DNA of 890 nucleotides. Source: Escherichia coli (lineage in GTDB: Bacteria > Pseudomonadota > Gammaproteobacteria > Enterobacterales > Enterobacteriaceae). Shown here piece after piece: positions 788 through 890 of the stretch; within the stretch, counting starts at the first letter, position 1, and every line of letters begins with the position of its first letter. The position numbers were made by a program, and so were the translations under genes. The DNA is taken from assembly GCF_003334335.1 (NCBI RefSeq), contig NZ_QOWQ01000141.1; one strand, 5' to 3'. The notes beneath the pieces are model-generated. The model was given only the letters and a program-made list of their open reading frames with translations. It was not told the origin of the DNA and searched no databases.

Positions 788-838
788 CCAAATTCAACAG
801 GGATAAAATAGTGGTAAGCGTACAGCCTGAACCGTCTG

Positions 839-851
839 GTCAGAATCTGAC
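839..851. promoter_or_regulatory. 13-bp palindrome GTCAGA-a-TCTGAC; candidate operator for a dimeric DNA-binding protein
   Basis: Perfect 6-bp inverted arms around a single central base, in a region with no forward ORF leaving the window. It overlaps a weaker hairpin at 827..843, CTGA(a)CC-gtct-GGTCAG. Confidence 0.25.
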
Positions 852-864
852 GAATTAGACAAAG

Positions 865-876
865 TGGTGTCCACCA
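865..876. promoter_or_regulatory. 12-bp palindrome TGGTG-tc-CACCA; second candidate protein-binding site
   Basis: Perfect 5-bp inverted arms with a 2-bp spacer, 14 bp downstream of the 839..851 palindrome. Confidence 0.2.
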
Positions 877-890
877 AATAAGTAGTGGGA

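Follow-up and report, generated by a model that had tools for sequence, protein, structure and literature searches.

An 890-nt stretch of Escherichia coli DNA, referred to here as the window, ends shortly after a small palindrome that had been proposed as part of a regulatory region, and the question this locus raises is what, if anything, the palindrome does. All coordinates are those of the window, and positions beyond 890 belong to its continuation, which we read in a near-identical record (L001). The 12-mer at 865-876 is as originally described, with TGGTG at 865-869, a TC spacer at 870-871 and CACCA at 872-876, the two arms being perfect reverse complements. Another palindrome, GTCAG-aat-CTGAC, lies at 839-851, with 13 bases between the two, such that the second begins 14 positions past the end of the first, as had been noted. 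The accompanying caution that 5-bp arms are by themselves close to chance expectation is confirmed by shuffling. The window contains four palindromes with 5-bp arms and spacers of up to 2 bases, where 500 dinucleotide-preserving shuffles give 2.5±1.6, and seven with spacers of up to 4 bases, where shuffles of the same type give 4.1±2.3. Taken alone, TGGTG-tc-CACCA is real but unremarkable.

The left end of ISEc8

The palindrome sits inside the left end of ISEc8, an insertion sequence of the IS66 family (Table 1). The window matches E. coli chromosomes at 99.8%, with tnpA, tnpB and tnpC annotated directly downstream, and the RefSeq annotation of L001 places three consecutive genes at 6905-9064 in the order tnpA-tnpB-tnpC. 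Homologues of TnpA belong to Pfam PF01527 and contain a helix-turn-helix (HTH) domain. The GTAAGCG tip is common to all of the relatives that we collected, and a full-length 2442-bp copy (L005) is 99.4-99.5% identical to RefSeq records for the 'IS66-like element ISEc8 family transposase'. The element shares with ISEc8 and IS66 its GTAAGCG termini, imperfect inverted repeats of about 22 bp, gene order and, for ISEc8, an identity of more than 99%. Of 5426 complete E. coli genomes, 3376 contain at least 80% of ISEc8; the element and its relatives are among the commonest E. coli insertion sequences, and are also found on virulence and resistance plasmids and in genomic islands.

The copy in L001 (6813-9101) differs from the full-length element in that it is 2289 bp long, has a short tnpC of 461 aa, and has flanks that do not match. 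No 8-bp target-site duplication is present at its ends (AAATAGTG on the left, TTTTGTTC on the right), whereas 8-bp duplications, a typical trait of the family, are found in the relatives L009 (TAGCCATC) and L017 (TCTATGCA). The missing duplication points to a rearranged copy and not to another family; the shortened length and the unmatched flanks suggest a deletion or recombination between copies.

Table 1. Features of the window around the palindrome at 865-876.
Feature	Position	Strand	Remarks
Zinc-ribbon domain protein gene, WP_001221615.1	117-551	+	From the ORF list and RefSeq; context, not part of the feature
ISEc8 left end	814-890	+	Last 77 bases of the window; starts with GTAAGCG and continues past the window
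Left terminal inverted repeat, GTAAGCGTACAGCCTGAACCGT	814-835	+	22 nt; 82% complementary to L001 9080-9101
Predicted hairpin 5' arm, ATT.GACA...TGGT.TCCAC	854-874	+	RNAfold and RNAalifold
Reported palindrome, TGGTG-tc-CACCA	865-876	.	C875 and A876 are loop bases in the predicted long hairpin
Predicted hairpin loop, CAAATAAGTA	875-884	+	From the predicted fold; the equivalent loop is about 3 to 12 nt in other subgroups
Visible part of predicted 3' arm, GTGGGA	885-890	+	Includes the Shine-Dalgarno (SD)-like GGGA at 887-890; the arm runs to 905, outside the window

In L001 the zinc-ribbon gene is followed by the IS66-family element. We note a 17-nt inverted repeat (664-680 and 712-728, 88% complementary) 3' of the zinc-ribbon gene, and a terminator-like stem at 707-725 with a T-rich tail (to 735) that is the sole plus-strand terminator hit; together, the repeat at 664-728 and the stem at 707-725 may mark the end of transcription of the zinc-ribbon gene. 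Just upstream of the window region, at L001 3768-6550, IS100 (IS21 family) lies between two zinc-ribbon protein genes and is followed by fragments of IS3, IS5 and IS1; insertion sequences have thus heavily disrupted the island.

The original prediction placed the palindrome in a regulatory region and raised the matter of its distance to a start codon beyond position 890. The region around the palindrome is indeed non-coding and lies just 5' of a gene, tnpA of ISEc8, whose start is about 20-30 nt past the palindrome, the candidates GTG 897 and ATG 906 both falling outside of the window. It had also been allowed that the 12-mer might occur at background frequency genome-wide. In 455 kb of fetched related loci, which are mostly IS copies and their flanks and not whole genomes, it occurs 82 times, and all 82 occurrences are within IS left ends, so that it is not spread about at a background rate; 76 of these are offset by 51 nt from the GTAAGCG tip, and the other six are in truncated or variant copies with no tip found upstream. 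Conservation, which had been proposed as a check on both palindromes, gives a divided answer, since the 865-876 palindrome keeps a fixed place in IS left ends while the one at 839-851 is specific to ISEc8. Relatives have GTCAT..CTGAT or CTGAA at the latter position (GTCATAATCTGAT or GTCATAATCTGAA), so that its symmetry is broken, and we rejected it as a partner element of 865-876 because it is unconserved among them. The view of the two palindromes as a compound operator is not supported, because 839-851 is not conserved and the halves of 865-876 are predicted to pair with sequence downstream. As a whole, the original interpretation holds in part.

A predicted hairpin in the tnpA leader

On balance, we favor the view that the 12-mer is no unit of its own and instead makes up the central part of the 5' arm in an imperfect hairpin, predicted at 854-905, in the tnpA leader. 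RNAfold and RNAalifold pair ATT (854-856) with GAT (903-905) and GACA (858-861) with TGTC (898-901), and, in the inner stem, TGGT (865-868) with ACCA (891-894) and TCCAC (870-874) with GTGGG (885-889). In this fold the two halves of the 12-mer are unpaired with each other, and each pairs with the 3' arm, most of which is outside of the window. The window ends in the middle of that arm, and the pairing partner could therefore not be seen when the palindrome was first described.

The 3' arm of this inverted repeat lies over both an SD-like sequence (GGGA, 887-890) and a potential start codon (GTG 897), and the end of the hairpin at 905 abuts ATG 906. The partner of TCCAC, GTGGG, overlaps GGGA, the partner of GACA, TGTC, overlaps GTG 897, and the bases that separate the SD-like site from the start codon are complementary to TGGT. 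Within the start-codon stretch (885-908, L001 6884-6907) there are three in-frame candidates for the tnpA start, GTG 885, GTG 897 and ATG 906, all of which are used by gene callers, to give proteins of 133, 129 and 126 aa, respectively. Relatives have GTG, ATG or TTG at the position of codon 897, where one common ISEc8 variant has GTA, and ATG, TTG, ATA or TCA at the position of codon 906. GTG 897 is the best candidate, because GGGA lies six bases upstream of it, with ATG 906 as the fallback; whichever of these two is used, the translation start region is within the predicted 3' arm or flush to it.

The hairpin is present in both the minimum-energy and the centroid structures of the ISEc8 leader, with 61 nt giving -15.7 kcal/mol and a z-score of about -3; for a 113-nt leader fold the z-score is -2.0. 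RNAalifold returns the identical 16 pairs from 14 close variants. None of these 16 pairs has changed on both sides among the 14 variants, because the ISEc8 clade is too uniform, and the single changes in the clade are split roughly evenly between those that are compatible with wobble pairing and those giving A·C breaks. Copies of ISEc8 are 98-100% identical, and conservation within the clade thus says little. The stability of the leader is average for the element (-16.3 kcal/mol, versus -16.0±4.7 in 223 sliding 61-nt windows of the same IS). The plus and minus strands fold equally well, and G·U and A·C mismatches are about equally numerous and carry no strand signal; strand assignment from these counts was dropped as uninformative.

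Other identities for the 854-905 region were also considered. A consensus scan found no sigma-70-like promoter in the window or in L001 6700-7000, and a search by eye for a sigma-70 promoter having the palindrome within its spacer gave weak hexamers only (TAGACA, then TAAGTA). An intrinsic terminator was rejected, as there is neither a T-run nor a terminator-like site. A known RNA family was likewise rejected, since Rfam 15 gives no relevant match in the window, nor any match at E <= 1 in L001 6760-6980. Elsewhere in the element, we note that a perfect 9-bp G+C-rich hairpin (TAAGCCCGG-taaaatac-CCGGGCTTA, z -4.1) is present between tnpB and tnpC, at L001 7655-7663 and 7672-7680, and takes in the initial two bases of the tnpC ATG; it may occlude a second start or be something like a terminator.

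The leader hairpin across IS66 subgroups

Relatives collected via TnpA from genomes, viral contigs and plasmids comprise 217 loci, which sort into about 17 left-end types; TnpA identity among them falls to about 30%, and elements of Serratia, Pseudomonas and Cupriavidus are included. Records labelled as a Corynebacterium MAG, Chryseobacterium and Acinetobacter (L002, L025, L032 and L039) also contain TnpA or ISEc8-clade relatives with 90-100% protein identity to the window copy, and these are likely to reflect assembly contamination or mislabelling, not a wide host range. Folding of the 61 nt that end at the start codon gives, for 13-15 of the 17 types, a minimum-energy hairpin that terminates 0-6 nt 5' of the tnpA start. 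The z-scores of the leader hairpins range from -1.4 to -10.5 across types, and pairing probabilities at positions -14 to -5 are 0.67-1.0 across those that bear a hairpin. The arm sequences vary by type (GACAAAG..., GGATAGTG..., ACTTAGA..., GATAGAG..., TTAGAGC...). The design extends to non-enteric elements: a Cupriavidus element (L217) has a perfect 15-bp hairpin (CAAAGTAGTTCCCAT and ATGGGAACTACTTTG, z about -5), and one from P. aeruginosa (L216) pairs 15 of 16 arm positions (CCACAATGGTGCCCAC and GTGGACACCATTGTGG, z about -4.5).

Compensating changes occur across the subgroups and not within the ISEc8 clade. When seven sequences from other subgroups are aligned, both sides have changed in 8 of 17 pairs. 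Of the cells, 78.6% are paired, a share that falls to 30-43% if the partner is slid, and the covariation score of 0.336, as against 0.183 after shuffling, is reached in 0 of 500 shuffles. With 15 subgroup representatives in a gap-free register, 78% of cells pair, versus 34-44% when slid and 59% when columns are shuffled (0 of 2000), a register that was anchored by hand and that compares phylogenetically related subgroups, so that the shuffle counts are not probabilities. Among the same 15 representatives, a 5' arm forms on average 11.7 of 15 pairs with its own 3' arm and 8.6 with that of another group. Column-wise covariation between ISEc8 and the L028 group was dropped, as the inner register slips by 2 nt, and a hand-anchored register of the arms only was used instead.

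Individual relatives illustrate how the pairing is kept. Cupriavidus has T-A in place of the C874-G885 pair of ISEc8. In Serratia L045, GTGTCCAC has become GTTCCCAC (the element reads TAGTTCCCACCA), which destroys the local palindrome and makes GTTCCCAC an exact complement of GTGGGAAC. The 3' arm of L023 has five substitutions, each of which creates or restores a pair, to give a perfect stem of about 23 bp. This leader stem (about 2950-3000, Intestinirhabdus alba) is predicted at -42 kcal/mol, looks like the product of templated palindrome correction, and probably silences tnpA. In most subgroups the 5' arm has a central dinucleotide TC or CC that is met by GA in the 3' arm, a correspondence that fits an anti-SD/SD pair.

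Not all relatives conform. In the common register L197 forms no more than 7 of 15 pairs, the hairpin of Pandoraea is 17 nt upstream of the start, and in L051, from a Serratia plasmid, ATGGACAC is repeated directly in tandem and no clear hairpin is predicted. We note that in L051 (about 110-160) three in-frame direct copies of (A/G)TGGACA, with spacings of 18 and 12 nt, replace the inverted layout, and that the motif is likewise doubled in frame in P. aeruginosa L216. In L047 (about 107-140), L029 and L052 the conserved motif (A/G)TGGACAC(T/C)AT begins a short ORF that is not in the frame of tnpA; that of L047 reads ATG GAC ACT ATC GTA TGA, and its stop codon overlaps the tnpA ATG (ATGA), an arrangement that suggests translational coupling.

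A plausible scenario, and one in which we have moderate confidence, is that the palindrome serves to occlude the tnpA translation start in the manner of IS200 and IS10. As the SD-like GGGA and GTG 897 are in the paired 3' arm, an RNA containing both arms would bury the ribosome-binding site and the start of tnpA in the hairpin, and translation of this transposition protein would be kept low. We infer that both arms are transcribed and that the structure acts in the sense-strand RNA to repress translation; the target could be the element's own transcript, read-through transcripts from outside, or both.

Alternative readings and other insertion sequences

The local symmetry of the 12-mer invites a different explanation, in which it is a dyad-symmetric DNA site for a dimeric protein, putatively the element's own HTH protein TnpA or a host regulator, and a second, diverged copy (TAGTGGGAACCA) follows 18 bp downstream; the bound protein would repress tnpA or help the assembly of the left end for transposition. 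We regard this as unlikely, if worth serious attention, since the recurrence of local dyad symmetry is not predicted by occlusion of the tnpA start. The two-fold symmetry that had originally been taken as a regulatory hint does recur in most IS66 subgroups: the 5+2+5 layout is found at the homologous position with differing arms (TGGTG/CACCA and AGGTG/CACCT) and in imperfect (4/5) versions in other subgroups (TAGAG/CTCTT and AGACG/CATCT), and 56 of 75 cells are Watson-Crick pairs, compared to 38.8±3.1 in column shuffles (0 of 2000). Two of the pairs use positions 875-876, which are loop bases of the long hairpin, and in every case 2 nt separate the arms, not enough for an RNA loop, with local RNA hairpins that are weak (0 to -5.8 kcal/mol). 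The PF01527 HTH domain of the TnpA homologues is consistent with such a site, as are the direct, not inverted, copies of (A/G)TGGACAC in L029, L051 and L216. The symmetry is lost, however, in relatives that keep or improve the long hairpin without it, being reduced to three of five pairs in Serratia L045, two in Cupriavidus L217 and one in Pandoraea L049; in L045 and L217 the long hairpin is improved. The distance between the arms varies, no promoter-like site overlaps the 12-mer in a consensus scan of the window and L001 6700-7000, and positions 11-15 in the outer part of the arm, for which there is no local partner, are still 63% complementary (counted from the per-position table), which an operator leaves unexplained. 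The motif was not found at the right end, and a symmetric subterminal transposase site at both ends was rejected on this account. The local symmetry could instead have arisen incidentally, because the two arms are diverged direct repeats (TGGTGTCCACCA and TAGTGGGAACCA) with 18 nt between them. The 12-mer also resembles a host operator of the GntR/HutC type, TGGT-N4-ACCA; this candidate was set aside, as it is not common to the other subgroups. It is possible, with a somewhat smaller chance than that of a dyad site in general, that the 12-bp dyad TGGTG-NN-CACCA and its covarying equivalents are the DNA recognition site of TnpA in a dual use, or else a kinetic trap. In the former case one sequence would work twice, as a DNA operator or left-end assembly site and as an RNA anti-Shine-Dalgarno arm; in the latter, the 5' arm would fold on itself during transcription and permit translation in a single burst, until closure of the long hairpin. 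To our knowledge, it is not established what the accessory proteins TnpA and TnpB do in the IS66 family.

Two further explanations do without a sense-strand structure of any function. The palindrome, and perhaps the hairpin too, might be a neutral by-product whose apparent conservation comes from recent, near-identical copies and templated perfection. Palindromes of this size are at chance frequency, ISEc8 copies differ by 2% at most, the palindrome block is barely more conserved than its neighbors (majority fraction 0.97 versus 0.89-0.93), the stability of the leader is average for the element, and L023 looks like a case of mutational palindrome perfection. Drift would nevertheless be expected to erase such a hairpin, and its persistence at the same place relative to the tnpA start, despite TnpA identities of about 30-60%, arms that cannot be aligned, and compensating changes, counts against neutrality and makes it improbable. 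Least probable is that the functional product is an antisense RNA stem-loop made from the opposite strand across the tnpA start, like RNA-OUT of IS10 or art200 of IS200. Control of this kind is known for IS10, IS30 and IS200 (PMC4513863, PMC8450116), the minus strand folds equally well (-15.8 kcal/mol, z -3.7), and several plus-strand C·A mismatches in other subgroups would be G·U pairs on the minus strand; other plus-strand pairs in those subgroups are themselves G·U, however, and neither a minus-strand promoter-like site in L001 6700-7000 nor an Rfam match is present.

Occlusion of the tnpA start by a leader hairpin has close counterparts in other families. In IS200, a stem-loop in the tnpA leader sequesters the Shine-Dalgarno sequence and represses translation, and mutations in the stem raise expression (PMC4513863); a structure in the 5'UTR of ISPpu9 has experimentally been shown to have the same effect on translation (PMC8450116). 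ISEc8 is like IS200 in having a left-end inverted repeat 5' of the transposase gene with its 3' arm over the ribosome-binding site, an arrangement from which low translation would be expected. It differs in belonging to an unrelated IS family without sequence similarity, in that toeprinting and mutagenesis have been applied to the IS200 structure while the ISEc8 hairpin is a prediction, and in that the left-end terminator and antisense RNA of IS200 are not seen in the ISEc8 leader.

In IS10 and IS50, a left-end inverted repeat occludes the start codon in read-through transcripts and so protects the element from outside transcription; their native promoter lies between the two arms, and their own mRNA escapes. 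ISEc8 shares the complementarity between an IS end and the translation start, and its version would silence transcripts from flanking DNA; the consensus scan found no promoter-like site in its leader. The InsA proteins of IS2 and IS1 are HTH repressors that bind left-end operators overlapping the promoter or the terminal repeat. ISEc8 is similar to these in having a small left-end dyad and a first ORF that encodes an HTH protein of the PF01527 type, and differs in that its dyad, a putative site, is 51 nt inside the tip and beside the ribosome-binding site, and has been lost in some relatives.

Both ISEc8 itself and start occlusion by a leader hairpin are already known, and it is the IS66-family instance that we find undescribed: no account of a leader hairpin in this family was found in the searchable literature, a search outside of which older key papers lie, and there is no Rfam family. 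The locus shows that, where a short palindrome lies at a window's edge, it can form one arm of a bigger structure with its partner outside. Self-silencing by a hairpin that hides the translation start is an ordinary device of such elements, and the putative ISEc8 hairpin fits the general rule that insertion sequences throttle translation of their transposition proteins. A conserved structure over the tnpA ribosome-binding site would then provide a simple and testable handle on self-control in the IS66 family, which is little documented.
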